A stretch of 64,000 nucleotides of DNA from a virus. Positions 1,983 through 58,004 of this stretch are shown piece by piece. The stretch spans positions 32,001 through 96,000 of the IMG/VR virus record IMGVR_UViG_3300017971_000201, one strand, 5' to 3'. A program made the translations under genes and the position numbers. The notes below the pieces were generated by a model, which searched no databases, was not told the DNA's origin, and saw only the letters and a list, made by a program, of their open reading frames with translations. The first letter of the stretch is position 1. Each line of letters opens with the position of its first letter.

Positions 1983-3121
1983 TTGGTCGACTCCGCGAAG
2001 AACTTGAGGACCGCGAGAACCCTCGGATCCTTCTTGTTCTTGTCGGCGGCGTCCACCAGCTTCGAGACGTCGCCACCGTTGGCCTGGAAGACCGAAACAC
2101 CAGCCGCCACGCACTCACGGCTCTTCTGGGAGACGTGCGCCAGGGCGAGGAGGAGCTTGATGTAGATCTTCTTGTCCTTGTCCTGGTTCATGGCGGCGAA
2201 CTCGCCGAGCGCCGTGACGAGCGCGGCCAGCCGGTCGGGCTCCTCGGGCGGGTGAGGCATCGCCTTCTCGGGATCGTCGAGCACTGCCTTCGGGTTCGGC
2301 AGCTCCTTCTGGAGCTTCACGAAAGAGACGAACTCGGTCCCGACGCCGGACCCGACCAGCCCCTCGGCCACGGCGCGGAGCGGACCGAAGTCGCCCTTCC
2401 CGAACTTGAGCGCATCCTCGTAGAGGAGACCGAGGTTGTGCCAGCTCCGGGGGGTGGCGAACTGACCGTTCTCCTTGTCCGCCTGGTTCGGGAGCTGGGA
2501 GAAGAACGCGGGCTTCCACGTGAGGAAGCCGCCGACCACCGGGGGGAGGCTCTGGCTCGCGGCCCAGTACATCCACTCCTCCAGCTCGGGCTCCAGGCTG
2601 ACCAGGCAGACCCGGTTGCGGAGCGGGGAGGGCAGCTCGCGGGCGCCCGCCTTGTCGCTGGCCCGGTTGCCGGTGAGGATGATCCGCACGTTGGGGCTCA
2701 GCTCGAGGTCACCCATGCTGCGCTCCTGGACGAGCTGGAAGCAGGCCGTCTGGACGGCGCGCTGCGCCTGGGTGATGTCCTCGAGCACGAGGACCCCGTA
2801 GGGATCGGAGCCGTCCGGCCCAGCCCCTTTGGCGAGCTGGCCGAGGAACTTGGGCGGGCAGAAGTCGGTGAACCGCTGCTCGGTCTTGTCGAACGTGACC
2901 GTGACCATGAACGGGACACCGCTCATGTCTTCCGGGAGGTGGCCCGTCAGCTCCCGTCTGACGGTCAGACCAGTCGTGCCCACCTTGGCGGCGCGCGCCT
3001 GCTCGGCCGCCCCGATCGCCTGGGCGAGCGCCGACTTTCCGATGCCGGGCCGGCCCAGGAAGAACAGCGGCACGCTGGGTGGTAGAACGGCCGCTAAGTT
3101 GAGGATCTCGTTGAAGTTCAT
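1979..3121 (-). CDS. MoxR-like AAA+ ATPase
   Basis: Walker A GRPGIGKS, Walker B-like VLVLED, TGNR, SPLRNR and ATPRSW motifs; adjacent to a VWA gene. Confidence 0.85.
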   Translation of the reverse strand: MNFNEILNLAAVLPPSVPLFFLGRPGIGKSALAQAIGAAEQARAAKVGTTGLTVRRELTGHLPEDMSGVPFMVTVTFDKTEQRFTDFCPPKFLGQLAKGAGPDGSDPYGVLVLEDITQAQRAVQTACFQLVQERSMGDLELSPNVRIILTGNRASDKAGARELPSPLRNRVCLVSLEPELEEWMYWAASQSLPPVVGGFLTWKPAFFSQLPNQADKENGQFATPRSWHNLGLLYEDALKFGKGDFGPLRAVAEGLVGSGVGTEFVSFVKLQKELPNPKAVLDDPEKAMPHPPEEPDRLAALVTALGEFAAMNQDKDKKIYIKLLLALAHVSQKSRECVAAGVSVFQANGGDVSKLVDAADKNKKDPRVLAVLKFFAESTK

Positions 3122-3148
3122 ATCGCTGGTTGTCTCTCCTCTGCACTG

Positions 3149-3157
3149 GTTCTACCC
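3149..3157 (-). promoter_or_regulatory. GGGTAGAAC repeated -10-like element
   Basis: Copies at 3149(-), 9777(-), 14053(-), 14091(+, GGGTATAAC), 15113(+), 63615(-) and 63653(+), all upstream of gene starts. Confidence 0.6.
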
Positions 3158-3225
3158 GGGTCTCGGGCGCGCCTGTGCCAGATTCCGAAAGAGCTGAGGA
3201 GGCGATCCGTTTCGTCTCCTCACCC

Positions 3226-3254
3226 CTCCCAACAACTCAGCGATTCATTCTCAC
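3226..3254 (-). promoter_or_regulatory. bipartite motif GTGAGAA-N11-GTTGTTGRGAG, copy 1
   Basis: One of five copies, all with an 11-nt spacer. Confidence 0.7.
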
Positions 3255-3268
3255 GAGATTTCTGGAAA

Positions 3269-3886
3269 TCAGGTTCCGGCGCCCACCGTAGGGGCCTCCC
3301 GGGCCTCCCGGGTCCAGCAGACCGGGCAGCCGGCCGCGTACTCCGAGACCCCGCCCACCTTGATCTGGCCGACCTTGGGCTCCTTGCCGATGTAGACCGA
3401 CCGGGTGGCGGTGTTGAAGGATGCGCAGAACTGGCAGTCGGCCTTGCAGTCGATCCGATGGTCGGCGCAGGCCACGATCTTGGGCATCGAGTCGCCGAAC
3501 GGCTCGCCCTCGGAGGTGGCGGGACACCCGGAAACGACTACGTCCGCCCACTGGCGGATGCGCTGGATCGACGGCCAGAGCAGATCTTCGTCGTCCCAGA
3601 GAGATGGCTCGTCGATCCAGACGACGTCCGCGCCACAGCTGGAGGCGATGCTCTCGACATCGTCGGCCGACTCGGTATCGAGGCTGGGGAACTCGTCACC
3701 GTGCTTCGTGACGAGCGTCCCCAGGCGGTCGCCCTTCTCGGGGTTCTCGGGATCTGGCCGGATGGACCGCACCGGACGGATGAGGATGACCGTCTTTCCG
3801 AGACCCTGTAGACGCTGGCAGGTCAGGAGCGCCTTGGTGCTTTTCTCGGCGTGGGTCGGGCCGACGTAGGCGATGAGCAGCTTCAT
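3269..3886 (-). CDS. tdk: thymidine kinase (type II, divergent)
   Basis: GPTHAEKST P-loop variant, DVVWIDE, SG..ATSEGEPFG, and a Zn-lasso CQFC...VGGVSEYAAGCPVC. Confidence 0.8.
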   Translation of the reverse strand: MKLLIAYVGPTHAEKSTKALLTCQRLQGLGKTVILIRPVRSIRPDPENPEKGDRLGTLVTKHGDEFPSLDTESADDVESIASSCGADVVWIDEPSLWDDEDLLWPSIQRIRQWADVVVSGCPATSEGEPFGDSMPKIVACADHRIDCKADCQFCASFNTATRSVYIGKEPKVGQIKVGGVSEYAAGCPVCWTREAREAPTVGAGT

Positions 3887-6418: not shown

Positions 6419-9004
6419 TTAGGCGTTGTCACCCCCGAGTAGCTCCGCAGCTGTGAAGCGCCGCAGGCACTTCATGCAGGTGGTCTTCTTGCCGCTCTCC
6501 TTCATCCGATCGACCACCTTGCGCGAGATGAGCTTGATCTCGCCCTTCTCCTTGCAGCCTGGACAGAAGTAGGCGCCCGAGGTCAGCGCTGACGGCTCTC
6601 GCGCGTCCAGGCGGGCGAGCCTCGCGCGCGCGATCTGGGCGTAGTCCTCATCCTTGTCGCAGGTCACGAACTGGAAGCCGAGCCTCTTCGCGGCCACTGG
6701 CGTCGAGCCCGTCCCGCAGAACGGATCAAGCACGACTCCGCCCTCCTGCGTGACGAGCCGGATGAGGTACTCCATTAACGCAAGCGGCTTCTGGGTCGGG
6801 TGGCTGATCACCTCGTCCTTGTGCTCGTCGTGCTCCTCGAAGCTGTCACCCTCATGGTTGAAGACCAGCTGACAGCGGCGGCAGTAGGACCAACGCTCCT
6901 TCGTCGCTGCCTTGGGCGTATAGAAGAAGCGGCAGCTAGCAGCGAGCTTTTCTTCTACGGTAAGCCCGCATGTAGGCGTTGTGTTCGGATGACGCGGATG
7001 GATCGTCAGAAAGAAGCGGCTTGCGCCTCCTGCGTCATCGAATCCGGTTCTTGGCTGTAAGGATCCCACGCGACCTTTACCGCTATCCGCGATAGCCGGA
7101 CTGGCCGAACGCCGGATGGCAATAGGATTGGTGGGTACGGTGCTCTGGCTGCGCCCACTCTGCCGATCAAGCTCGGCGACCGGACAGCCAGGCGCGCACT
7201 CGTACTCCTGGACCTCTTCCTTGCCATCGTCGTCGGCGTAGGTCTGATCTTCGCCGCGCTGAGTGCGAGCCTTCAGGTTGATCCGCTGGTCTGCACCATC
7301 CTCCGGCAGGTTGCGCTTCACCGCCGTTCCGGTGCGTACCCGCTTCGATCCGACCAGCTGGCACTCGTCAGTAGCACAATGAACGAACCATTTGCGCCAT
7401 CCAGCCGGAATCAGTTCACGGATAACTTCAAGGCGCGCACTTGGGCGCGTAGCCGTTTGTTCTCCGCCCGAATTCTTACAAGTTCTCGTTCCACCTTCCG
7501 GTGGTCCTTGCTGTGGTCTCTCCGATCCGTGACTTCCAGGTTCCTCGGCCGGTTGTCGTCCTTGATCCCGTTCCGGTGGTGAACGATCTCCGTACGCGCC
7601 AGCGGTCTGCCCAGCGTCATCGCGGCAACCGCCCTGTGCTCCAACACGTACTTGCCCTTCACCATCTTCCGAGCGAACGGTCGCAGCGGTTCTGGGAGCA
7701 CTTCGATCATCACGTGCAGGTAGCCGTTGCGGTCCTTGTATCTGCCGCCCTTCCACTGCGACGAATTCTCCCGCAGGAACTTGCCCGTCGCCGCGTCCGC
7801 CATCTTCTTGCGAGACGCTTTCGTGTGGCGTTTCCCTAGTCGGCTGAGGTTGGCCTTCGCATGGCACGCCCGCGAGCAGTACTTCCTTCGCCCGTTCCTC
7901 GCCCATGCCGGTGTGACCTCGAAACTCCGCCGGCAGTGCTTGCAGGTGATCTTCACCCACTGCACCTTGCGCTTCTTGCGGCGCGCTTGTCCAGCGCACG
8001 CCTGAGTACAGAAGCGTCGTTTCGCGAGCCGCGCCGGCATCCCGCGCATCAGCTCTCCGCAGTGCTCGCACGGCTTCGTCAACGCGGTAGTAGGCATAGA
8101 TCGTGGCACGCTGCTCCTCCGTCGCATCGGGTACGAGCGTGTACCAATCATACTCGATATGTGAGAGGATCACGTTCGATGGCCACCGTCCGTCCTTCGA
8201 CTCGCACGCGATGTTCTTGAAGCCGCCTTTGTGGCAGGGAGAGCCTCCCTTGCCCTTCGGGTAGCTCCAGCCTGGGTTCGGGCCGACGCGTGCCGCGTCG
8301 ATGTTCAGCGCGCCTGTTCCGTGTTCCAGAACGTGGTCGGCGTACCGGCCGTTGAACGGCTTGCGGGCCAGCACGATCGGCTCGTGCGCCGGCTTGAGAG
8401 CTGTTCCCCAGCCCTTCCATGCCGCACCTTCCTCGGTCGCCGGCTCATCCCGGATCGTCCGGCCGCCGCGCCTGTCCTTGCTCGAGATCCCCCTGTTGGT
8501 CGTGTGCTCACGCCGCCGGCCCTCGCCAGTGCGGACCTCGTCGTTCGCGAACTTGATCGCGTGCGAGTCCGAGCGGCCGGTCGTCAGCAGCGCGTCGATG
8601 CCCTTCGAGATGTTGTGCGACTTCGGGAAGCCGGTGCCTGTGAGCCAGTCGATCTGGTCGTAGACCTCGAAGCCGGCGAACCGGATCGCCATCACGCCCC
8701 AGTCGAATGTGCGCGTCCCGAAGAATGACATCAGCCAGGCGCCGGGCTTCAGGACACGGTAGACCTCGCGCCAGAGCGTCGGGCCGGGGACGAACCTGTC
8801 CCACTCGTTCTCCATGAAGCCGCCGCCGGCCGGCGCGAAATCCTCACCGGCGAGCCAGGCGCGCATGACCTCAGCTGGATCAGGCTGGTGGACGCCCAGG
8901 CCGTACGGGCTGTCGGTCACACAGGAGTCGATGCACTCGTCGGGGAGCTGCCGCAGGTACTCCGCAGCATCGCCAACCCCGACTGCATTCAGGTAAGACA
9001 CCAA
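6419..9004 (-). CDS. DNA amino-methyltransferase (N6-A/N4-C, beta class) with a large internal insertion
   Basis: Motif IV VTDSPYG precedes HPTQKP and motif I VLDPFCGTGST; conserved GFPKS, GWGTALKPAHEPI, GRWPSN and GGASRFF; C-terminal CxxC pair. Confidence 0.85.
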   Translation of the reverse strand: MVSYLNAVGVGDAAEYLRQLPDECIDSCVTDSPYGLGVHQPDPAEVMRAWLAGEDFAPAGGGFMENEWDRFVPGPTLWREVYRVLKPGAWLMSFFGTRTFDWGVMAIRFAGFEVYDQIDWLTGTGFPKSHNISKGIDALLTTGRSDSHAIKFANDEVRTGEGRRREHTTNRGISSKDRRGGRTIRDEPATEEGAAWKGWGTALKPAHEPIVLARKPFNGRYADHVLEHGTGALNIDAARVGPNPGWSYPKGKGGSPCHKGGFKNIACESKDGRWPSNVILSHIEYDWYTLVPDATEEQRATIYAYYRVDEAVRALRRADARDAGAARETTLLYSGVRWTSAPQEAQGAVGEDHLQALPAEFRGHTGMGEERAKEVLLAGVPCEGQPQPTRETPHESVSQEDGGRGDGQVPAGEFVAVEGRQIQGPQRLPARDDRSAPRTAATVRSEDGEGQVRVGAQGGCRDDAGQTAGAYGDRSPPERDQGRQPAEEPGSHGSERPQQGPPEGGTRTCKNSGGEQTATRPSARLEVIRELIPAGWRKWFVHCATDECQLVGSKRVRTGTAVKRNLPEDGADQRINLKARTQRGEDQTYADDDGKEEVQEYECAPGCPVAELDRQSGRSQSTVPTNPIAIRRSASPAIADSGKGRVGSLQPRTGFDDAGGASRFFLTIHPRHPNTTPTCGLTVEEKLAASCRFFYTPKAATKERWSYCRRCQLVFNHEGDSFEEHDEHKDEVISHPTQKPLALMEYLIRLVTQEGGVVLDPFCGTGSTPVAAKRLGFQFVTCDKDEDYAQIARARLARLDAREPSALTSGAYFCPGCKEKGEIKLISRKVVDRMKESGKKTTCMKCLRRFTAAELLGGDNA
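7411..8109 (-). CDS. HNH homing endonuclease nested out of frame in the methyltransferase
   Basis: CxxC zinc fingers, NUMOD3-like GKRHTKASRKKM, and EHRAV...VHHRNGIKDDNRPRNL; GGAGG lies 6 nt before GTG 8109 (alternative ATG at 8097). Confidence 0.85.
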   Translation of the reverse strand: MPRSMPTTALTKPCEHCGELMRGMPARLAKRRFCTQACAGQARRKKRKVQWVKITCKHCRRSFEVTPAWARNGRRKYCSRACHAKANLSRLGKRHTKASRKKMADAATGKFLRENSSQWKGGRYKDRNGYLHVMIEVLPEPLRPFARKMVKGKYVLEHRAVAAMTLGRPLARTEIVHHRNGIKDDNRPRNLEVTDRRDHSKDHRKVERELVRIRAENKRLRAQVRALKLSVN

Positions 9005-31983: not shown

Positions 31984-33959
31984 TACGCACCAGCCGAGGA
32001 GAGGAACAGCTTGAGCCTGGTGTCTCCGGCGATAGTGATGTCAATTTGGCCGGTGGTCGTTCCCGAGCCGGTGATGTCGATGATCTCGATCTCATCGAAA
32101 GGGGCGCTGTAGAAGTTCTGCTCGTCCCACGAGGCAAAGCCGCCGCAAAGGGCTCTGATGGTATGACCCATGCCAGCCGAGAAGCTGTGAGAGTTCAGCG
32201 GACCCGGGTTGTAGCCAGAGGACGGGTACCAACCACTCCCAGCCCACGGTGTGATCTGGGTGAAGCCATCGCCAATTGGACCTGTTGGTCCGGGAGCGCC
32301 TGTGACACCCGGGTCACCAGTCGGCCCAGTCTGGCCGATCTCGCCGACCGTCACCTCGCCATCGCCGGTCTCGACGACCTGTCCGCCGCCGTCGCGGAAG
32401 TTGACCGTGTGGAACGGGCCGCCGGCGAGAGGAGAGCCGGCATTCTGGATGTTGATCGCTCCCAGCTTCGCGCCCGCCTGAGACAAGAGGACGCGGCCCG
32501 GCTGCGTGGTAGAGGCGTCCGGCAGCGGCGGCTTGCCGCCTGGCATGTGGTGGATGAGGCGCTGATCGGCCATGCCGGTCTCAAGCGGAACGAAGGCCGG
32601 GAAAATGAACCGGATGGTTGTCGCCGCATCGGCCTCCGCATCGACCTCAACGCCGAGGATCTTCTTCAGCTCCAGTGTCCAGCGACGCGATGTCAGGCCG
32701 CCCGACGAGGCGTTCGGCCCCTGGTACTCGTCGGCCAGCTCGATCAGCTCGTCCGAGAAGATCGTCGCGATCTCGTAGTAGAGCCCATCGGCTCCGAGTA
32801 TCGTGTCGCCCTCCTCCAGCTCGCCCTGCGCCTGACCGCCGGCGATCGTGACGGTCTTCTGTGCGTTCGAGAAGGTGTAAACACCGGTGAGCGTTGCCTC
32901 TACAGGACCGGTCACACGACCGAAGATGACACGCCTGGTGTCGATTCCATCGAGTAGCCGATAGCCGGTCGTGGCGTCCAGCACGATCGAGATGTTGCGC
33001 ACGTCGTCGTTGGGCGACGAGATGGCCCCGCGCGCGCCCTCGGCTCCCTGCCCGTCGAGGGTGATCTCGGGCTTGTGATCCCGGTTGACCTCCGAGAACG
33101 AGCCGGAGACGTTGACCGACGTGTCGCCGGCCTCGATCAGGTAGTCGTTGCTTCGCAGCACCACCAGGACGAAGCCGAGCCTGCCGCCCATCGATGGAGC
33201 GCTCTGGTCGGCCTCGAGCCGCTCGGAGAGCGTGTCGTAGACGGTGGAGTCCAGCCCGATCCGAGCTGCGGCCATCTCGTTGACGATCTCGACAGCGGTC
33301 TCAAGATCTTCGACTGAGCCGGCGGGCATGAAGCCGAATTCGACGCCGTCGTAGGCCAGCGGCGCGTCCCGCAGCATGTCCAAAGGGTGCGTGTGGCCGG
33401 ACGCCGTCTGTACGACGCCGGCCACGACCGTGTGGAAGTGGCCATCATCGGTAGAGGAGGTACCGTTGAGACTGGCGTCCAACTCGACCGTGTGGGTGTG
33501 GCCGAAGCGCAACACGAGCCTGTAGGAGATCGTCATCGCCCCGGCGTTTCCGGTCACGACACAGATCAGCGTCTCGTCGAAGGCCACCGGTCCAGCTGAC
33601 CTGGTGATGATCTCGGCCGATGTCTGCGCTGACCCGTCGGCTGTGTACGAAGCTCGGGCGATCACGTGGATCGGGAAGTCACCGGGGGGCTGTCCGGTGA
33701 AGTCCAGGGAGACGTTCGAGTCCAGCGCGACGGTCAAGTTGCCAGGGTCGTCTTGTGAGGCCGTCTTGAGGAGTGAGAACCCCTCGGCAGGGTCGGTCAC
33801 CAGGTTGAGCACCGGCGAGGCCACGGTCGGCGTGAAGCCGACGTAGACGCCCTTCGGCATCCCGCCGAACTTCTGGACCAGAGGGGCCGACTGCCACTGG
33901 TCGGAGTAACCGAGCAGTGCGTTGCCCAGGGTGAAGTACTCGACGGGGTAGATGGCCAT
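31983..33959 (-). CDS. tail fibre protein, paralogue 2 (His-rich insert)
   Basis: PKGVYVGF, SMGGRLG, YYEIATI, FHTVNF and collagen repeats. Confidence 0.75.
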   Translation of the reverse strand: MAIYPVEYFTLGNALLGYSDQWQSAPLVQKFGGMPKGVYVGFTPTVASPVLNLVTDPAEGFSLLKTASQDDPGNLTVALDSNVSLDFTGQPPGDFPIHVIARASYTADGSAQTSAEIITRSAGPVAFDETLICVVTGNAGAMTISYRLVLRFGHTHTVELDASLNGTSSTDDGHFHTVVAGVVQTASGHTHPLDMLRDAPLAYDGVEFGFMPAGSVEDLETAVEIVNEMAAARIGLDSTVYDTLSERLEADQSAPSMGGRLGFVLVVLRSNDYLIEAGDTSVNVSGSFSEVNRDHKPEITLDGQGAEGARGAISSPNDDVRNISIVLDATTGYRLLDGIDTRRVIFGRVTGPVEATLTGVYTFSNAQKTVTIAGGQAQGELEEGDTILGADGLYYEIATIFSDELIELADEYQGPNASSGGLTSRRWTLELKKILGVEVDAEADAATTIRFIFPAFVPLETGMADQRLIHHMPGGKPPLPDASTTQPGRVLLSQAGAKLGAINIQNAGSPLAGGPFHTVNFRDGGGQVVETGDGEVTVGEIGQTGPTGDPGVTGAPGPTGPIGDGFTQITPWAGSGWYPSSGYNPGPLNSHSFSAGMGHTIRALCGGFASWDEQNFYSAPFDEIEIIDITGSGTTTGQIDITIAGDTRLKLFLSSAGA

Positions 33960-50538: not shown

Positions 50539-51066
50539 CTACACCTGGGGCACGGGCAGCGGCAGGATCTCGACCCGCTCGACCGAGAGGGTCAGCTCCT
50601 CCATCACGACCTCGGAGCCGGAGGCGTCCAGGTCGGTCGCCGGCCGCCATGTGGACGGGATGCAGTCACGCAGCCAGAGCATCCGCTGTGGAATCCGCTT
50701 CTGGTTCCGGGTCTGGACGACGATGAGACTCCGCCGGGGCGCGACGCGGCCCCAGACGACCTGCTGGAACCAGAGCCACATGTCGAGGTTCGTGTTGAAG
50801 ACCGCGAAGCGGATCGTGCACTCGCCGCCAGCGACGTAGCCCTGCGGCACGTGGTGCGTGAACGGCCAGTTCCCCTCGCGGATGTCCTTCATGTCCACTG
50901 TCATCTCGGGGATCGAGATCGACTGGAAGCCGACGTAGCTCCCGTTGTTGATCGCGCTCTGGACGGCCTTGACCGGAAACGCGGTGGGGAAGACGCCGGC
51001 AACGGGAACATCCAGCAACGCGAAGTTGTGGCTCAGGAGCGGATCACTGTTCACCGATCTAGCCAT
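50539..51066 (-). CDS. tail tube-like protein 2 (T4 gp19 family)
   Basis: DPLLSHNF, GFQSIS.PE, IREGN, CIPS.W....LDASGSEVVMEELTL; TAGGAT 6 nt before the ATG. Confidence 0.85.
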   Translation of the reverse strand: MARSVNSDPLLSHNFALLDVPVAGVFPTAFPVKAVQSAINNGSYVGFQSISIPEMTVDMKDIREGNWPFTHHVPQGYVAGGECTIRFAVFNTNLDMWLWFQQVVWGRVAPRRSLIVVQTRNQKRIPQRMLWLRDCIPSTWRPATDLDASGSEVVMEELTLSVERVEILPLPVPQV

Positions 51067-51075
51067 GGCGCCATC

Positions 51076-52935
51076 CTACCGCGTCTTGAGCTTGCGCCGC
51101 TTCCCCTTCTTCGGCCGGATGCCCAGACCGCCGAGCACCTTCTTCTTGAGGTGCTCGGGCGCTCCAGCCAGCTGAGCCTCGAGCCACGCCTTGCCCTTTG
51201 GGTTCTCGAGCGGCTTCGCCAGGATCCGCGTGGCGAACCGGTGCATCCTCGGCTCGATCTCGGTGCGGAACTCGACGCTGCTCGTGTCGTACGTCCCCTT
51301 GTTCTCGATCTCGTAGTAGCGGTGACCGAACTTCTGCTTGTAGACCTGGGCGGCCTTCGCCACCGCCTTGTGCGAGGCGACCACATCTGCGTCAGGAACC
51401 GTCCGTCCCCGTGCTTGGTTGCGGGCGCGGGCAACGTCGAGAGGGGTGACCACCATCACCATGGAGCAGTCGTAGCCGAGGTCTTCGAGCGCCCTCTTGC
51501 CTTTCAGGATGTAGGTGGGGTTCTTGGCGGTGCCATCGACGACCATGCCGAGCCGCCCGCGCGCGAATTGCTCGCGCTGATTCATCATCGTGTACCACGA
51601 GCGGTCGTGCAGCTCCTTCCCGATCGATGGGAACTTGGGGTTGTCAGTCGGTAACTGGAAGGCCGTCTTGAGATCGATGCCCTTCTGCCGTACGCGCCAG
51701 GCGAAGATCTCGTCCATGCTCAGCGCCTTGAGCCCGAAGGCTGCGCCGAGCTGGCTGCCGAGCTTCCCGAACATCGTGCCGGCGGTGAAGCTCTTGCCCG
51801 AGTTGTGGTGGACGGCTCCCTCGGCCACGTAGTTCGCCCAGCGCGGCACGGTCAGGTCGTAGTAGACCCCCTCACCCGCTGGCTTGATCGTCCGCACTCG
51901 TTTCCACATGCTATGATAACGGCATGACGCCACAGCAGCTTGATGAGATGGAGCGCCTCTACCAAGAGGGCTGGAACTCGGTCCAGCTCGGTCTTCGCTA
52001 CGACCGAACGCCGCCGACGATCCGCTACCACCTACGGAAGCGCGGTGCGACGGTGCGCTCCCGTGGAGAGGCGAACCGGCTCCGCGCCCCGAGCGCGCGC
52101 TGTCAGGTAGACGAAGCGAAACTGCGCGAGCTTCACGGTCGGGGTCTGAGAACGAGGGAGATCGGGTCTGCTCTTGGTGTAAGCGCGGAGACTGTTCGCC
52201 GCCGCCTGCGAGACCTGGGCATCGCTCGCCACCAGCGCGGAGCGCCTGGGGAGCGGAATCGTCACTGGCAGGGGGGCCGCATCGTGGACGACGATGGCTA
52301 CGTGCTCGTCCACCGACCGGATCACCCGTTTGCGACGAAGGCCGGCTACATGCGCGAGCACCGGCTGGTGATGGAGGCGCACCTGGGTCGCTACCTTGAT
52401 CCGTCTGAGGTTGTCCACCACGCAGACAAGAACCCGCAGAACAATGCGCCGTCGAACCTGAAGCTCTACGCGACGAACGCAGAGCATCTTCGGGACGAAC
52501 AGACCGGAGTTCCGAAGAACGTGTCACCGGAAGGTCGCCGCAGGCTGCAAGCCGCTGGTCGCAAGAGTGGCGCAACTCGGAGAGCGAAAGCCAGCCGGAA
52601 GGCGTCAGGAAGCGGTGCTCGTCAGTCACGGTGACGCGCGACCCGTCCTCCAGCTCGATCTCGTGCAGCTCCGCCACACCCTTCACAAACGGCGCGTTGC
52701 ACTCGACCGGCTCGAACCCATCCGGTGTCAGTGCAAGTACGGTGATCGGCCCTCCGCGCTCGGCCAGCGCGTCTACGCGCTCCTCCAGTCCCGTACGCGG
52801 ATCGAGGATCTTCGTGTGCGGCGCGATGCAGCCCATACCGCCGCCGAGGAAGATCACCTTGAGGATGTGCGGATCGAAGACGCCTTCGTGCAGGCTCCGG
52901 GCAGCTGCCGGAACGATCCGCTCGAACAGGCACAC
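51076..52935 (-). CDS. P-loop kinase (AAA_33/zeta-toxin-like) interrupted by an intein
   Basis: KVIFLGGGMG|SGKS, GRLGMVVDGT and GYD.SMV.V.TPLDVARARN..RGRTVP; GTG 52935. Confidence 0.8.
   Translation of the reverse strand: MCLFERIVPAAARSLHEGVFDPHILKVIFLGGGMGCIAPHTKILDPRTGLEERVDALAERGGPITVLALTPDGFEPVECNAPFVKGVAELHEIELEDGSRVTVTDEHRFLTPSGWLSLSELRHSCDQRLAACGDLPVTRSSELRSVRPEDALRSSRRASGSTAHCSAGSCLRGGQPQTDQGSDPGAPPSPAGARACSRPSSQTGDPVGGRARSHRRPRCGPPASDDSAPQALRAGGERCPGLAGGGEQSPRLHQEQTRSPSFSDPDREARAVSLRLPDSARSGRGAGSPLHGSAPSHRASVGGSGSSAAFGRSEDRAGPSSSPLGRGAPSHQAAVASCRYHSMWKRVRTIKPAGEGVYYDLTVPRWANYVAEGAVHHNSGKSFTAGTMFGKLGSQLGAAFGLKALSMDEIFAWRVRQKGIDLKTAFQLPTDNPKFPSIGKELHDRSWYTMMNQREQFARGRLGMVVDGTAKNPTYILKGKRALEDLGYDCSMVMVVTPLDVARARNQARGRTVPDADVVASHKAVAKAAQVYKQKFGHRYYEIENKGTYDTSSVEFRTEIEPRMHRFATRILAKPLENPKGKAWLEAQLAGAPEHLKKKVLGGLGIRPKKGKRRKLKTR
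51909..51917 (+). promoter_or_regulatory. extended -10 (TGcTATGAT) for a leaderless HNH mRNA
   Basis: Lies 6 nt before ATG 51924; no RBS present. Confidence 0.6.
51924..52634 (+). CDS. HNH homing endonuclease, antisense within the intein
   Basis: Two HTH repeats, WQGG...DGYV, and YMREHRLVMEAHLGRYL...VVHHADKNPQNNAPSNL. Confidence 0.88.
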   Translation: MTPQQLDEMERLYQEGWNSVQLGLRYDRTPPTIRYHLRKRGATVRSRGEANRLRAPSARCQVDEAKLRELHGRGLRTREIGSALGVSAETVRRRLRDLGIARHQRGAPGERNRHWQGGRIVDDDGYVLVHRPDHPFATKAGYMREHRLVMEAHLGRYLDPSEVVHHADKNPQNNAPSNLKLYATNAEHLRDEQTGVPKNVSPEGRRRLQAAGRKSGATRRAKASRKASGSGARQSR

Positions 52936-52936
52936 G

Positions 52937-53470
52937 CTAGTACAGGTTCTTGCCGCGCTGCTTGTCCGCCGCGTCGGCACAGGACTCCGCAGCCTTGGCC
53001 GCCGCACGGAGCGACGAGACCAGAGCCTTGTGCTTGGGCTCCATCTTGGAGAGTCCGGGGTCCTTCCAGCGCTTCTTCTCGGCCCACATCCGCTCGCATG
53101 TCGTGGCCGCATCCTCGAGCGCGTACTGGAGATCGCGCTTGTTGATGTAGCGACGGGGCATCATGCCCATCATCTCGTGGAGAGGGTTGCGGCCGTCGTC
53201 CTGATCCTGTTCCTGCTCGGTCAGGCCGGCCAGCTTGTCGAACTGTCCCATCGTGTCCTCCTGGGCGCCCTTACCCTTCATGCGAACGATGGCAAAGCCC
53301 GCCCTCTTGAGGGCACTTCGGATCGCGAGCACCTTGTCGTACGGCTTGGTGAACTTCTCACCATGCTGCAAAGCCTTCAGGAGAGCGGCGTCCACCTCCT
53401 TGCGCTTGGCGATCTTCTCGCCCGCGTTCTTGGCCTCAACCAGTCCCGCCCTCTCGTCGAAGTGCCCCAC
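52937..53470 (-). CDS. hypothetical protein, possible head-internal protein
   Basis: RBS GAGGAG; two M-G-x-F-D-x-x-AGL-x-E units. Confidence 0.65.
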   Translation of the reverse strand: MGHFDERAGLVEAKNAGEKIAKRKEVDAALLKALQHGEKFTKPYDKVLAIRSALKRAGFAIVRMKGKGAQEDTMGQFDKLAGLTEQEQDQDDGRNPLHEMMGMMPRRYINKRDLQYALEDAATTCERMWAEKKRWKDPGLSKMEPKHKALVSSLRAAAKAAESCADAADKQRGKNLY

Positions 53471-53786: not shown

Positions 53787-54272
53787 TTACGCGGAGATGA
53801 TCTCGACCTCCAGCTCCTCGAGAGTGAGCGTCAGCTCTTGGAGCGCGACCTCGGAACCGGTAGCGTCCTTGTCGGCCATCGGCTTGACCGTGGACGGCCA
53901 GCACTCGCGCAGGCGCATGATCCGGGAGGGCGACCCGTCGATCCCGAACTCGTCGGTGATGTGGAACTCCATGATCATCAGGTCGGAGCGGTAGGTCTCC
54001 GCTGAACCGTTGATCACGTCGATGATCCACTTGTAGAAGTCGGACTCCCGCTGGACCGTGCCCTTCATCAGCTGGCACTCGCCGACGGTCTGGATGCCGG
54101 GGAACTTCCGGGTCCAGCGGTACACGCCCTCGCGGTACTCCGCCGGATCGATGCTGACCTCGGGGGTCGAGACCGTGGAGAACCCGGCGACGGGGTCGAG
54201 ATGCCCGCCGGCCGGGTCCACGACGTGGAACCTGTAGTTCAAATACGGATCTGTACTTGCAGCGCGGGCCAT
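53787..54272 (-). CDS. major tail tube protein (T4 gp19 family)
   Basis: DPYLNYRFHV, AGFS.VS.PE, EYREG, RKFPG, CWPS and DATGSEVALQELTL..E. Confidence 0.92.
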   Translation of the reverse strand: MARAASTDPYLNYRFHVVDPAGGHLDPVAGFSTVSTPEVSIDPAEYREGVYRWTRKFPGIQTVGECQLMKGTVQRESDFYKWIIDVINGSAETYRSDLMIMEFHITDEFGIDGSPSRIMRLRECWPSTVKPMADKDATGSEVALQELTLTLEELEVEIISA

Positions 54273-55171
54273 TAGCTCACCCTCCGTGCGTTGGTCTTGT
54301 CGAGGATACCTTGTCGATCGCGAAGCTCACGGTAGGTAAAGCCAAGCGAATTGAGCTTCCGTTCGTCCCAGATGGAGAACGGCAGGCTTGGATGGTCCTG
54401 CGTGAAGGCTTCGATCAGGCGATCCTGAGTCTTAGTCCGCCGACCCTTCACATCGATGAGGTTGACCAGCGCGCCGTCATCGTCATAGACCCAGAAATCA
54501 GGCGTGTACCTGCGAGGCTTGCCGGACCGGGTTCGCAAACTGTCGAGGTCGTAGCTGGTCACCTCGTAGATCCAGGTCAGCGCTTGCTGATCGAGCCACC
54601 AGGCCGCGAGCACCTCCCACGAGGATCGCATCAGGAACTCGCGGCCGAGCCTGTCGGTGAACGACCACTTCTTCCCGCGATGGTTGAACCCCTGCGGCCG
54701 GAGCCTGGCTCCAACCCGATGCAGCAAGAGATTGATGCCGGTAAGCGACATCCTGTAGTACTTGGCAAGCTCGGTGGTCGTGCGTCCTGCCGCATAAGCG
54801 GCGGCGATCTCGCGCTCCTTCGCGTCCGACCACCGCTTGTTCCGGTGGCCGGTCGCATCGCGCTCAACGCCAGCAGCGCGCAGCGTGTCGTAGACGCAGT
54901 CCTGCCCAACACCCAGTGCTGCCGCGATCTTAGGACCGCTCTCGCCCGATTGGTAGCGGCGTACGACCTCCGACCGCCGCTTCTTATCGAACTTGACGTG
55001 CCCCATGTTCTTCCGCAGCCGCTTGAGGCCCAGCTTCGAGGCCCGCGTCCGAACAGCCATAGGAGATCGACCTGGCAGCCGGTCAGCGCACCACGACGGA
55101 CCGTGGTCGGGGTACGAGGCGCGAAGCACCTCGTCCTCCTCCCTCGTCCATCTGGACGCTGCACGAGCCAT
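54272..55171 (-). CDS. free-standing PD-(D/E)xK homing endonuclease with HTH repeats
   Basis: Myb-like WTREEDEVL and HTH repeats, then MRSSWE...WIYE...YTPDF...IDVKG. Confidence 0.8.
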   Translation of the reverse strand: MARAASRWTREEDEVLRASYPDHGPSWCADRLPGRSPMAVRTRASKLGLKRLRKNMGHVKFDKKRRSEVVRRYQSGESGPKIAAALGVGQDCVYDTLRAAGVERDATGHRNKRWSDAKEREIAAAYAAGRTTTELAKYYRMSLTGINLLLHRVGARLRPQGFNHRGKKWSFTDRLGREFLMRSSWEVLAAWWLDQQALTWIYEVTSYDLDSLRTRSGKPRRYTPDFWVYDDDGALVNLIDVKGRRTKTQDRLIEAFTQDHPSLPFSIWDERKLNSLGFTYRELRDRQGILDKTNARRVS

Positions 55172-55199: not shown

Positions 55200-57962
55200 C
55201 TACGAGATCTGCGTGCCGACCGGCTGCTGGAGGGTGAAGATGATGAACTCCGCCGGCGTGCCGGGGTTGAACCCGATGTCGATGATCGCCTTGCCATCGG
55301 CCACGGTCGCGGCGTTGTTGTTCGTGGCGTTGCACGTCACGAAGAACGCCTCGGCCTCGGTCTCGCCGGCGAAGTAGCCGAGACGGAACAGCGAGCCGTA
55401 GTAGCCCTTGAGGGCGGTCTCGATCTTCGCCCACAACGGCGGCCCGTTGTTCTCGAACACAGCCCACTGGAGGTTGAGGCTGGTCGCGTACATCAGGAAC
55501 ATGTGCAGCGTGCGCGCGTTGATGTATCGCCAGCGCCTCTCTCGCGAGAGACTGCGAACCCCCCAGACGGCGATCCCGGTCGCGTCGCTCGAGATGATCG
55601 GGTTGATCCTCGACTGGTAGAGGTTGTCCCGGTCGGTCTTCTCCAGCACGAACTCGGCGGCGACGACGCCGACCGCGTTGAGCGCGCCGTCCTCGACACC
55701 ACCGGGGGCCTTCCCGACGTTCTTGACGTTCGCCGTGCGAGCGTAGACGCCGGCCACGAGCGGCGACACCGGCACCAGCTCGACCCGATCGGTGAGCGGG
55801 TTGACGAAGTAGATGTTGGGGTAGTACATCGCCCCGATCTTCTCGTCCCACGCCTGGTCGACCTGGATGTACTTGATCGCCTCGCTCACGGTCGTGCCGT
55901 TGGCGTAGCACATGATCAGGTAGCGCAGGTCCGGCCGGTTCTTGGCGAACTGGACCATGTCGAACTGCACGAATTCCGAGCCCTCGAAGTCCGGCACCAC
56001 GACGTTGAGGGGCTCCTCGACCAGGTCGAGGGCGTAGATCCCCTGCTTGCTGGACTCCAAGGCGGCGGCCGAGATGTCCGCGCGGGTGACGGCCGTGCCG
56101 TTGACACCGCCGGACATCTGCCACTCCGCCGAGTCGGCGAGCCCGGTGTAGTTGCCCAGGATGGCGGTGCCGGCCGTCGGCGCGCTGTCCCAGGTCAGGT
56201 CCCAGGCGCCGGTGTCGTAGTCGATCGTGTTGGCACCGGCCGCGTCCACGTCTCCGACCAGGTTGCCGAGCCCATCGTCGGTCGCGACCTGGCCCGACTG
56301 GTAGTCGGCGTCGATCGTGGTCGTGTTCCTCGGGGCCACGAGCGTGGTGAGGGCGATGATCCCGGTGACGTAGTCGACCGAGCCAGCTGCACCAGCGACA
56401 CCGCCCAGCTCGGTCAGGTCTCCGGCCACGTCGCCGTTCACGATCCCGAGCGGAACGTAGTCCACCAGGATGTCCGTGCTGCCGATCGGAGCCACCGAGG
56501 CTTCGAAGTCGATCAGGCCGCTCTGGGTCGGGTTGGACACGTCGTCCACCAGGTCGATCGTGTTCGTGCCCACGCCGAGCGCGCCCGCGAGAGCGACTCC
56601 CTGCTCCAGGTTGTCCGTGCCGGCCGCCTTGGTGATGATCGCCGACGCGTTGTAGGTCGCGATGACCGTGCTGGTGAGCACCAGCCCGCCGCCCAGCGAT
56701 CCGGTCACGAGCCCGGTCATGGCACCGGTGACGTAGTTGATGGTCCCGCCGCCCGGCATGGCCAGGGGGTTCACCAGGTTGCCGAGCCCGTCGTCGAGGA
56801 TGACCTGCGCGCCGTCGTCCACGGTCGTCACCGCGATGGCGACAGTGCCGGGGTGAACCGGCGTGCCGGTCAGCGGTGCCGTGCTGAGGTCGTAGTTGCC
56901 ACCCGGCGACGACGCGACCAGCGTCTCCGGCGAAGGACCGGCCACGATCGCGTAGCGGAGCTGGAAGACCGTGTTCTCCCGGTAGACGGGAGCGGTCAGC
57001 GCGCCAGCCGCGATCTGGAAGGACGTGTCGGCTCCGTTGACCGTGCCGAGCGCGAACGGGCCGCTGCCGAGGTTGTCGAACTGGTTGCTGACCTTGGCGT
57101 AGAACAGCCGCAGGCTGCCGTCGAGCACCGGCGTCGTCGGGAGCGTCATCGCGAACGATGTCTCGATCCCGTCGACCGCCGGTGTTGGCGTCTGGCCCTC
57201 GTCGTCCTGCTGGGCATCGGCCGCGACGATCCGCAGCGTGTTGTCCAGGCAGGCGCCGGCCGAGAGCGTCCCCGAGAACTGCGTGTCGATGCCGTTGACC
57301 GATCCGCCGGCCACCAGCACCTCGTCCTCCTCGTATGAGGGGAGCAACCCGCTCGGCGTGCCGCCCGCGCCTTCGGTGATCTCCACCAGCTGGGAGGGCC
57401 GCCGGGGATCGGTGAGGACGGTGGTGACGTAGTCGGCCGCGTCCGGGTCGGTGAACTGGACCGCCTCGTAGGTCTCCTCGGAGACGAGGATCGAGGCGTC
57501 GAACTCCGAAGGACGGAGGACGAGCAGGTCGAACTTCCCCCACTGCTCGGCGCCGGCCGTCCGGTCGAGGAAGTTGCGGTTCCCTCGGATGTGGATCCGG
57601 GTCGTGTTCCCCCAGGTCCCCTCACCCTTCATGGTGAAGGTCCACTTGGTGGGGCCAGGCGACGCGTCGATGTTCGCCCACGCCGAGATGGCATCGGACG
57701 GAACCACACGGACGATGTAGGCCCGCTGTCCACCGTTCCCGAAGAAGCCCTGGATCCCGATCGGGACCAGACCTAATGACGAGATCTGGCCGAAGACCCG
57801 CTCGAACTCGACGGTCGAGCGGACCTCGACCGGCGTGTTGCTCGGTCCCTCGTCGGTCCATCCGACGAACGCCGCCTTCGCGGGAGAGATGCCCTCGGGG
57901 GCACGAGACGGCTCCTTCTCGAAGCCGTAGACACCTGGGCTGAGGATTTCGAGTTGGGCCAC
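55200..57962 (-). CDS. contractile tail sheath protein
   Basis: SPGVYGFE, AFVG.T..GP, FFGNGG.RAYIVRV, KAPGG, RINPI, VWGVRSL, WRYINAR, WAVFENN and PAEFIIF. Confidence 0.95.
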   Translation of the reverse strand: MAQLEILSPGVYGFEKEPSRAPEGISPAKAAFVGWTDEGPSNTPVEVRSTVEFERVFGQISSLGLVPIGIQGFFGNGGQRAYIVRVVPSDAISAWANIDASPGPTKWTFTMKGEGTWGNTTRIHIRGNRNFLDRTAGAEQWGKFDLLVLRPSEFDASILVSEETYEAVQFTDPDAADYVTTVLTDPRRPSQLVEITEGAGGTPSGLLPSYEEDEVLVAGGSVNGIDTQFSGTLSAGACLDNTLRIVAADAQQDDEGQTPTPAVDGIETSFAMTLPTTPVLDGSLRLFYAKVSNQFDNLGSGPFALGTVNGADTSFQIAAGALTAPVYRENTVFQLRYAIVAGPSPETLVASSPGGNYDLSTAPLTGTPVHPGTVAIAVTTVDDGAQVILDDGLGNLVNPLAMPGGGTINYVTGAMTGLVTGSLGGGLVLTSTVIATYNASAIITKAAGTDNLEQGVALAGALGVGTNTIDLVDDVSNPTQSGLIDFEASVAPIGSTDILVDYVPLGIVNGDVAGDLTELGGVAGAAGSVDYVTGIIALTTLVAPRNTTTIDADYQSGQVATDDGLGNLVGDVDAAGANTIDYDTGAWDLTWDSAPTAGTAILGNYTGLADSAEWQMSGGVNGTAVTRADISAAALESSKQGIYALDLVEEPLNVVVPDFEGSEFVQFDMVQFAKNRPDLRYLIMCYANGTTVSEAIKYIQVDQAWDEKIGAMYYPNIYFVNPLTDRVELVPVSPLVAGVYARTANVKNVGKAPGGVEDGALNAVGVVAAEFVLEKTDRDNLYQSRINPIISSDATGIAVWGVRSLSRERRWRYINARTLHMFLMYATSLNLQWAVFENNGPPLWAKIETALKGYYGSLFRLGYFAGETEAEAFFVTCNATNNNAATVADGKAIIDIGFNPGTPAEFIIFTLQQPVGTQIS

Positions 57963-58004
57963 GGCGCTCTCCTAAGCTCTCTCTTGGCTGGTTGCGGACC
58001 GAGC

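Follow-up and report, generated by a model that had tools for sequence, protein, structure and literature searches.

An antisense HTH-HTH-HNH homing-endonuclease gene within a predicted intein of a jumbo-phage P-loop kinase

Endonucleases encoded on the strand opposite an intein have already been described for the LAGLIDADG and VSR-like families (bioRxiv 10.1101/2025.01.02.630785). An antisense LAGLIDADG gene in the Synechocystis DnaX intein is credited to Gorbalenya 1998 (Nucleic Acids Res 26:1741, as cited in bioRxiv 10.1101/2025.01.02.630785), and inteins in actinophage minor-capsid genes likewise carry antisense LAGLIDADG endonucleases (bioRxiv 10.1101/2025.01.02.630785). HNH endonucleases in inteins are given there only as in-frame (bioRxiv 10.1101/2025.01.02.630785). 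The in-frame HNH inteins are attributed to Dalgaard et al. 1997, as cited in PMC5050341 and bioRxiv 10.1101/2025.01.02.630785, and a literature search found no paper on an antisense HNH endonuclease in an intein. An antisense endonuclease in an intein is not unprecedented, and the locus described here represents an HNH-type form of this rare arrangement, known since 1998. It falls outside the described LAGLIDADG and VSR-like subtypes because its nuclease belongs to HNH_3 and HNH enzymes were previously listed only in frame.

The window, the whole stretch of DNA analysed, comprises 64,000 nucleotides of virus record IMGVR_UViG_3300017971_000201 (positions 32,001 to 96,000). The features of the locus are collected in Table 1, and every element of the preliminary description is found where it had been placed. 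They are read here as a composite selfish element, in which a class-1 mini-intein probably carries a reverse-oriented, free-standing-type HTH-HTH-HNH homing gene in its endonuclease slot; the probability of this reading is put at about 0.8. A blastn comparison of the locus with 50,697 GenBank phages gave no match.

Table 1. Features of the intein-bearing kinase locus in window coordinates
Feature	Position	Strand	Description
Host kinase precursor gene	51076..52935	-	AAA_33/zeta-toxin-like P-loop kinase; ORF and translation
N-extein coding part	52831..52935	-	Ends ...FLGGGMG, first half of the Walker A loop
Intein N-lobe, residues 1-100	52531..52830	-	Cys1, block A, block B TDEH (52615-52626)
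Intein-frame linker, residues 101-305	51916..52530	-	Low-complexity, predicted disordered, antisense to the HNH gene, stop-free
Intein C-lobe, residues 306-343	51802..51915	-	Block F YDLTV, block G HHN; then +1 Ser of SGKS
C-extein (241 aa and stop)	51076..51801	-	Begins SGKS
HTH-HTH-HNH homing-endonuclease gene (236 aa)	51924..52634	+	Pfam HNH_3, PHROG HNH families
Putative extended -10 element TGcTATGAT (TGCTATGAT)	51909..51917	+	6 nt before the HNH start codon, at leaderless spacing

The open reading frame that holds the host gene spans 51076-53112 on the minus strand and reads ...FLGGGMG/C...AVHHN/SGKS, the slashes marking the intein boundaries. The GTG at 52935 is the likely start of the gene; it lies one base past the stop codon of the upstream gene, and the N-termini of two related alleles, L007 and L033, agree with it. 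The precursor then consists of a 35-aa N-extein, the 343-aa intein, and a 241-aa C-extein followed by the stop codon. The C-extein is 86% identical to that of an intein-free allele, L004, which scores above the Pfam cut-offs (33.4 bits for AAA_33 and 31.2 bits for Zeta_toxin), whereas the interrupted precursor scores slightly under them (26.0 vs 27 bits). The host protein appears from these matches to be an AAA_33/zeta-like kinase of a jumbo phage, split in its Walker A loop.

The intein, which occupies 51802-52830 on the minus strand and divides the P-loop as GGMG/SGKS, has the residues expected of a splicing element: Cys1, the TDEH of block B, the YDLTV of block F, the terminal HN and the +1 Ser. 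Residues C1, T6, H72, D325, V328, H342 and N343 are invariant among 12 related inteins (alignment A4). An AF2 model places residues 1-100 and 305-343 at a pLDDT above 90, and a Foldseek search with this model retrieves the Mtu RecA mini-intein (E 6e-7) and the Npu DnaB intein (TM 0.86). The intervening linker (residues ~101-305) is of another character: it consists to 70% of S, R, G, A and P, has no Pfam match at E<=1, and is predicted to be without secondary structure at a pLDDT of ~42. The insertion is exact, because the intein-free alleles of relatives (L004-L007) read GGGMGSGKS without a break. The preliminary description had reported a 343-aa intein with intact splicing blocks and a middle part without a recognisable nuclease, and both observations hold. 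The element appears to be a class-1 intein with a Hint fold, and splicing is predicted. A broken host gene that had simply received a free-standing endonuclease was considered and rejected, the splicing blocks being intact and the frame open.

The plus-strand gene sits in the endonuclease slot of the intein, between Hint blocks B and F, and its last ~40 codons overlap block B. The GC3 phase switches to the plus frame across it. Its product matches Pfam HNH_3 at 37.8 bits (cut-off 24.8) and the PHROG HNH endonuclease families (best 4e-26); Pfam HTH families match below their cut-offs. The AF2 model of the protein (mean pLDDT 87.6) folds into two three-helix HTH modules and an HNH core, corresponding to residues ~3-53, ~64-97 and ~119-194, and the core exceeds a pLDDT of 90. 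Foldseek aligns the model with I-HmuI (PDB 1u3e) with a probability of 1.0 over 79 columns (E 0.049). E-values of the whole model against the PDB are weak throughout, probably because its three domains are loosely connected, and a profile search of PDB sequences with the protein gave HTH repeat proteins as the only matches. Among 48 HNH homologues, H146, N174, N178 and H188 are invariant. The protein has both an HNH_3 motif with its conserved His, Asn and His and separate DNA-binding modules, in agreement with the complete HTH-HTH-HNH protein proposed earlier for this strand. Profile matches had been envisaged for both frames, and here the outcome is divided: HNH_3 clears its cut-off, whereas Intein_splicing, at 35.3 bits, stays slightly under its gathering cut-off of 35.8. 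The phage has further HNH genes at other sites.

Both strands are open across the 711 nt of the HNH gene, with no stop codon in the host frame. Codon position 1 of one frame pairs with position 1 of the other, and the junctions NTC-A, NTT-A and NCT-A are host-frame stops. This is the geometry claimed at the outset, in which the intein frame is not the codon-aligned antisense frame and NTC-A would create a TGA. The gene contains 31 risk codons and 45 codons that start with A, and no stop-making junction between them. Synonymous permutation of the gene yields a mean of 4.5 host-frame stops and a P(0) of ~0.003, against an observed count of zero. In the shuffles the frame is thus not usually open by chance, and the dual-coded reading withstands a refuting test that the first reading had set for it. 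A chance opening would imply that the host frame is open merely as stop-poor, GC-rich DNA, under no dual-coding constraint. The GC content of the window (64.7%) accords with this, as do two relatives that are singly non-significant in the shuffles (L015, P=0.06; L034, P=0.11). Elsewhere in the window, however, 42 genes hold 0.041 stops per codon in this antisense phase, which corresponds to ~10 expected at the HNH gene, and their longest open run is 147 codons, compared with 237 here. The phase is also open in relatives with a GC content of 0.32-0.45, and the 25 related loci together contain 0 stops in it where shuffles predict 135. The shuffles and the low-GC relatives led to the rejection of chance openness, whose probability is close to nil. 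The HNH gene keeps the host frame open by avoiding NTC, NTT and NCT before A-starting codons.

The differences between relatives indicate which of the two frames is held by its amino acids. In the HNH frame they affect 0.57-0.66 of sites at codon position 3 and 0.22-0.36 at position 2, and the pattern is reversed where the tail of the HNH gene overlaps block B. Among relatives, position 2 of the linker codons is the most variable site. These comparisons show that purifying selection holds the amino acids of the HNH frame and not those of the intein-frame linker; across the HNH gene, selection on the host frame acts only against stop codons.

The region upstream of the HNH gene has a promoter-like motif. 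The preliminary description had noted TGcTATGAT exactly 6 nt before the ATG and taken it for a putative leaderless promoter. The element is present (TGCTATGAT) and is the sole TGNTATRAT in the 64 kb on either strand. Comparison with relatives lends support to the leaderless assignment: five of them (L014, L017, L038, L039 and L048) share with the window a -10 box placed exactly at -12 to -7, with no Shine-Dalgarno sequence. In other relatives the -10 box lies ~35 nt upstream and is accompanied by a Shine-Dalgarno sequence. A -10 box matching at least 5 of 6 positions precedes the HNH gene in 15 of the 25 loci, against 7.4% in controls, a comparison in which the 25 loci are not independent and the antisense intein frame places its own constraint on the upstream sequence. 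In L033, an allele with a deletion in the HNH gene, the A at -11 is mutated. A generic scan for sigma-70 promoters and terminators over 51400-53200 found nothing, including no full -35/-10 promoter, and the putative promoter therefore consists of a -10 box only. From such a promoter, the HNH gene would be transcribed independently of the host gene, and the timing of homing would be decoupled from host expression.

The arrangement recurs far beyond this phage. An antisense position inside an open host frame, in the same phase, is shared by all of the ten closest HNH loci in IMG/VR and by 17 of the 19 best from GTDB genomes; these host frames are 464-1877 aa long and have a GC content of 0.32-0.70. 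The hosts of the 25 related loci (GC 0.32-0.70) include terminases and helicases, and the same HNH family is found in inteins at several different P-loop positions. The layout of an antisense HNH gene in an intein is a real and widespread one, and it is under selection.

Close relatives of the kinase gene provide alleles without the intein (L004-L007) and one without a complete nuclease, both of which the preliminary description had looked to as informative. In the latter, L033, an in-frame deletion has removed 94 codons of the HNH core, while the intein and its site are those of the window. Between the window and L033, nucleotide identity is 83.5% in the intein and 72.8% in the C-extein, and each of the two host alleles has an intein-free allele as a closer relative than the other intein-bearing one. 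The higher conservation of the intein relative to its host gene is consistent with homing and subsequent decay. Together with the separation of intein-bearing alleles by intein-free ones, this conservation points to recent mobility.

The same alleles bear on the rival view of a silent relic, in which a free-standing endonuclease gene once entered a mini-intein and has since ceased to be expressed or active, so that what persists is an intein with a junk spacer held open by selection on the host gene. Decay does occur: L033 has lost the HNH core, and two further loci, L043 and L044, combine a broken HNH frame with an open host frame. The plus-strand frame is nevertheless intact in the window and in 25 relatives. 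Its third codon positions change far more than its second positions, its four catalytic-core residues are invariant in the 48 homologues, a -10 box is enriched upstream, and the interleaving of intein-bearing with intein-free alleles, with an intein more conserved than the extein, argues for recent mobility. A silent relic is accordingly an unlikely description of this gene.

A second possibility is that the HNH enzyme is active but cuts elsewhere, the intein serving as a safe harbour in which the gene at most hitch-hikes. The pairwise identities of Hint and HNH sequences are only weakly correlated (rho 0.30, p 0.08), the same HNH family occupies inteins at several P-loop positions, and the phage carries other HNH genes elsewhere, all of which would suit such an arrangement. 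It is hard to reconcile with the finding that the closest HNH relatives are almost always within inteins and always in the same phase, or with the window and L033, which share the intein and an HNH remnant at one kinase site while their exteins differ. This explanation is considered improbable. Still further from likely is a mainly regulatory role, in which DNA binding by the HTH-HTH region, or the antisense transcript, modulates the kinase or the late tail operon. The two HTH modules and the expected convergence of transcription with the late operon would permit it, but the catalytic HNH residues are invariant, relatives in the family are annotated as, and behave as, phage homing endonucleases, and the degenerate allele L033 lost its HNH core and not its HTH part.

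The preferred reading, a mini-intein with a reverse-oriented homing gene in its endonuclease slot, suggests the following cycle. A late tail-module transcript would be translated into a 619-aa precursor, whose two Hint lobes would fold around the disordered linker of ~200 aa and remove it by splicing; the product would be a 276-aa kinase with GGGMGSGKS restored. Transcription of the HNH gene would start at its own -10 promoter on the opposite strand and would here probably yield a leaderless mRNA. In co-infections the HNH protein would nick or cut kinase alleles that lack the intein, in or close to the P-loop codons, and recombinational repair would copy intein and nuclease together. Once the allele is fixed the nuclease could decay, as in L033, leaving a mini-intein behind.

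A broader proposal is offered tentatively, at somewhat less than even odds. The Hint domain and the antisense HTH-HNH gene may form one ancient, monophyletic two-strand mobile element, always in the same codon phase, that moves among the Walker A codons of P-loop NTPases unrelated to one another (terminases, giant helicases and kinases) in many phyla of bacteria and archaea. Its nuclease would be expressed from its own, often leaderless, promoter, so that homing could take place before, and independently of, late expression of the host gene. If true, the element would be a living intermediate in the origin of bifunctional inteins by invasion of a mini-intein by a free-standing endonuclease.

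The locus is a clean natural example of a 700-base stretch that encodes one protein on each strand, with selection of a different kind acting on each frame, and it suggests that a homing endonuclease need not belong to the intein polypeptide. It bears on how inteins and nucleases first became associated, with splicing first and a free-standing nuclease later. To the known examples it adds a new host gene, three stages of the homing cycle in close relatives (empty allele, full element and nuclease-deleted element) and comparative evidence for a putative promoter of the nuclease's own. At such loci gene callers cut the host gene short or overlook the nuclease, so that many environmental phages have mis-annotated terminases, helicases and kinases. 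The compact HTH-HNH nucleases, which putatively recognise P-loop coding DNA, are also candidate site-specific nickases.

Several known systems come close to the locus. Like the antisense-LAGLIDADG inteins, it has a complete endonuclease gene opposite the intein in the endonuclease slot, an open host frame whose in-frame peptide lacks recognisable structure, and evidence of continued invasion. It differs from them in its nuclease, which is of the HTH-HTH-HNH type (Pfam HNH_3, I-HmuI-like), in its host site, a kinase P-loop, and in belonging to a large family that spans many phyla, keeps always to one phase and bears signatures of its own promoter. With the fractured genes that carry a split intein (2009, PMC2677866) it shares a free-standing-type endonuclease as a separate gene inside the intein coding region, a likeness that supports an origin of inteins in which splicing came first and the nuclease invaded later. 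In those genes, however, the intein is split and the host gene lies in two parts, whereas here the nuclease family is different and the intein is contiguous because the antisense gene is kept stop-free in the host frame. Canonical bifunctional inteins such as PI-SceI resemble this element in their Hint fold, in the insertion of the endonuclease between blocks B and F, in their preference for P-loops and in the homing cycle presumed for them. In those inteins, however, the nuclease forms one polypeptide with the intein and depends on translation of the host gene for its synthesis, whereas the nuclease of the present element is a distinct protein encoded on the other strand. Finally, the free-standing or intron-encoded phage HNH enzymes of the I-HmuI type (PDB 1u3e) have the same combination of an HNH_3 core with helix-turn-helix DNA-binding modules. 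In the present protein these modules are N-terminal, so that the domain order differs, and the gene is nested antisense within an intein, where the host frame constrains its choice of codons.

The preliminary description, a kinase P-loop split by a 343-aa intein whose opposite strand encodes a complete HTH-HTH-HNH protein, is confirmed, and its interpretation is supported in every testable part. In the search for intein-free alleles, four IMG/VR relatives with the same gene order proved to have an uninterrupted GGGMGSGKS; extein identity is 86% in three of them and 60% in the fourth. The element has thus been inserted exactly and in frame into the Walker A loop. An intein-free kinase homologue passes the Pfam cut-offs of both AAA_33 and Zeta_toxin. 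GTG 52935, the most likely precursor start, lies one base past the stop codon of the preceding gene and is consistent with the N-termini found in relatives. For Pfam Intein_splicing, the insert has an E of 1.3e-8 (35.3 bits; cut-off 35.8). Its splicing blocks are intact: when 12 related inteins are aligned, C1, T6, H72 (of TDEH), D325, V328, H342, and N343 are invariant. In an AlphaFold2 model, residues 1–100 and 305–343 have pLDDT >90, and this confident part resembles the mini-inteins of Mtu RecA, Npu DnaB, and Ssp DnaB (E as low as 6e-7, TM as high as 0.86); the intein is predicted to splice. Residues 103–301 have pLDDT of ~42 and lack secondary structure. As described, no nuclease is recognizable in this middle part, where a Pfam search at E≤1 finds nothing and Ser, Arg, Gly, Ala, and Pro make up 70% of the residues.

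The antisense 236-aa ORF scores 37.8 bits for HNH_3 (cut-off 24.8), and its matches to PHROG HNH-endonuclease families reach 4e-26. A model built on a 48-sequence alignment (mean pLDDT 87.6) begins with two helix-turn-helix modules; the beta-beta-alpha HNH core that comes after them aligns with the homing endonuclease I-HmuI. H146, N174, N178, and H188 are invariant in the 48 homologues, and the protein would be expected to cleave DNA. The gene occupies exactly the slot of the endonuclease domain in canonical inteins: its ATG lies six host-frame codons ahead of the C-terminal Hint lobe, and its final ~40 codons overlap intein block B. Given this overlap, the conserved C-terminal tail (…SGSGAR.SR) in the HNH ORFs merely mirrors TVTDEHRF on the opposite strand; its conservation is due to the intein rather than the nuclease.

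The openness of both strands is more than chance. GC by codon phase switches to the plus-strand frame exactly across the HNH gene. HNH codon position 1 pairs with host-frame position 1, so that NTC, NTT, or NCT before an A-starting codon creates a host-frame stop. There are 31 codons of these types in the gene and 45 that start with A, yet not one stop-making junction. Synonymous codon permutation within it yields a mean of 4.5 host-frame stops (P(0)=0.003), which confirms that this frame is not usually open by chance. In the same antisense phase, 42 other window genes show 0.041 stops per codon and a longest open stretch of 147 codons, a rate that predicts ~10 stops over the 237 codons of the HNH locus. 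When two homologous loci are compared with the window, HNH codon position 3, which is host-frame position 2, differs at 57–66% of sites and HNH position 2 at 22–36%, a difference that indicates purifying selection on the HNH protein and a variable host-frame linker; the pattern is reversed in the tail overlapping block B. The linker peptide, judging from these substitutions, may change freely provided that it stays free of stops.

The arrangement recurs widely. A search with the intein N-lobe found related, insert-free mini-inteins in terminase P-loops (L009, L012) and large inteins of a giant methylase-helicase with a homologous antisense HNH gene (L010, L011). With an HNH profile, the ten closest IMG/VR loci are all antisense, in one phase, inside open host frames of 816–1877 aa, and the HNH genes that match more distantly are free-standing. 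In one-per-species GTDB genomes, 17 of the 19 best matches are likewise embedded, with GC of 0.32–0.70 and on contigs assigned to many phyla. Over 25 loci, synonymous permutation predicts 135 host-frame stops and none occurs. All insertions lie within or beside Walker A loops (G-x-G|[ST]-G-K, or after G-K). A database search gives 226 homologues at E≤1e-10. Gene callers usually cut the host gene short at such loci: in L034, from Logan contigs, the Terminase_6 call stops at 2998 and the antisense HNH is called at 3001–3693, so automatic annotation shortens host genes at these inteins. The L034 protein is present on at least 24 Logan contigs.

Coordinates of the features at the intein locus and related sites
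Feature	Location	Strand	Details
Kinase precursor ORF	window 51076–53112	minus	likeliest start GTG 52935
N-extein	kinase ORF	minus	35 aa, ends FLGGGMG
Intein	kinase ORF	minus	343 aa, Cys first, HHN last
C-extein	kinase ORF	minus	241 aa, begins SGKS
HTH-HTH-HNH ORF	window 51924–52634	plus	236 aa
Conserved HNH tail	window 52512–52631	plus	
Putative −10 element	window 51909–51917	plus	TGCTATGAT, ends 6 nt ahead of HNH ATG
Tail sheath gene	window 55203–57971		neighbour of kinase locus
T4 gp19-like tube genes (two)	window 53787–54272 and 50539–51066		neighbours of kinase locus
HTH_23 ORF	window 54272–55171	minus	299 aa
Methyltransferase ORF	window 6419–9004	minus	861 aa
Zn-finger/HNH_3 ORF	window 7411–8151	minus	246 aa
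L033 intein	L033 1173–1919	minus	249 aa, frame open
L033 HTH remnant	L033 1295–1723	plus	142 aa, frame open
L034 terminase locus	L034 1517–3693		

The HNH gene had also been assigned a putative leaderless promoter, and this claim gains support from relatives. Neither strand of the window has a TGNTATRAT other than TGCTATGAT, and the ATG lacks a Shine-Dalgarno sequence ahead of it. A TATAAT match of at least 5/6 is present within 50 nt upstream in 15 of 25 embedded loci, compared with 7.4% of control positions. In one class (the window, L014, L017, L038, L039, and L048), the box lies exactly at −12 to −7 without a Shine-Dalgarno sequence, the spacing of leaderless mRNAs; in the other, it lies ~35 nt upstream with one. 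The nuclease-deleted allele, L033, has the A at −11 altered. Against this, a generic −35/−10 scan found no promoter at the locus. As consensus evidence, the recurrent box supports a putative promoter belonging to the HNH gene itself, from which the nuclease might be expressed with timing decoupled from that of its host gene.

The HNH of the window has its closest relative on L033, a 2.2-kb metagenome contig where this intein interrupts the kinase at an identical site. In L033, 94 codons between two LRD triplets are deleted in frame, and the HNH core is lost with them. By its sequence, this allele is a decay intermediate between the full element and a mini-intein. DNA identity between the window and L033 is 83.5% in the intein and 72.8% in the C-extein. 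Extein identities are 86% for the window and L004, 73.5% for L033 and L007, and 66% for the window and L033; each extein is thus closer to an intein-free allele (L004, L007) than to the other. Such a pattern is consistent with an element that spread horizontally and whose nuclease then decayed. In L043 and L044, two Acidobacteria MAG contigs, the HNH frame is broken at ~2501–3067, with only 17 codons open at the start of the match, and the antisense host frame is open for ~1500 aa; both are probably still-splicing inteins with a decayed nuclease.

The source virus record spans 159,664 bp (CheckV completeness 58%), of which the window is bases 32001–96000, with a GC content of 64.7%. A 275-kb contig carries a close relative, which makes this a jumbo phage. 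The intein locus lies in the tail module, where the minus strand holds nearly all genes. Between tail sheath and tube genes is an ORF that combines HTH_23 with a C-terminal part weakly resembling DUF1064; sheath and tube adjoin without it in L004, and L007 has a different ORF there (1409–2509), which by eye resembles GIY-YIG. For free-standing genes of homing-endonuclease-like type, the tail module seems to be a hot spot. Elsewhere, a DNA methyltransferase ORF has a ~260-codon low-complexity insertion, another frame of which encodes a Zn-finger/HNH_3 protein (Pfam HNH_3, E 1.4e-8). This second nested nuclease is on the same strand, out of frame, and no obvious intein blocks border the insertion. 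A third HNH_3-like match in the phage record (L003, G000:C1:21076-21249, plus strand), outside the window, has 52% identity over the HNH core within a 191-aa open frame.

The arrangement is known, though rarely described. Antisense nucleases are not mentioned in Dassa 2009 or Kelley 2016. Gorbalenya (1998) and Gogarten (2002) reported inteins with an antisense LAGLIDADG endonuclease, according to a survey of inteins in actinophages (bioRxiv 2025, 10.1101/2025.01.02.630785). Next to these LAGLIDADG cases, the present element is a new, HNH form of the arrangement in a new host gene.
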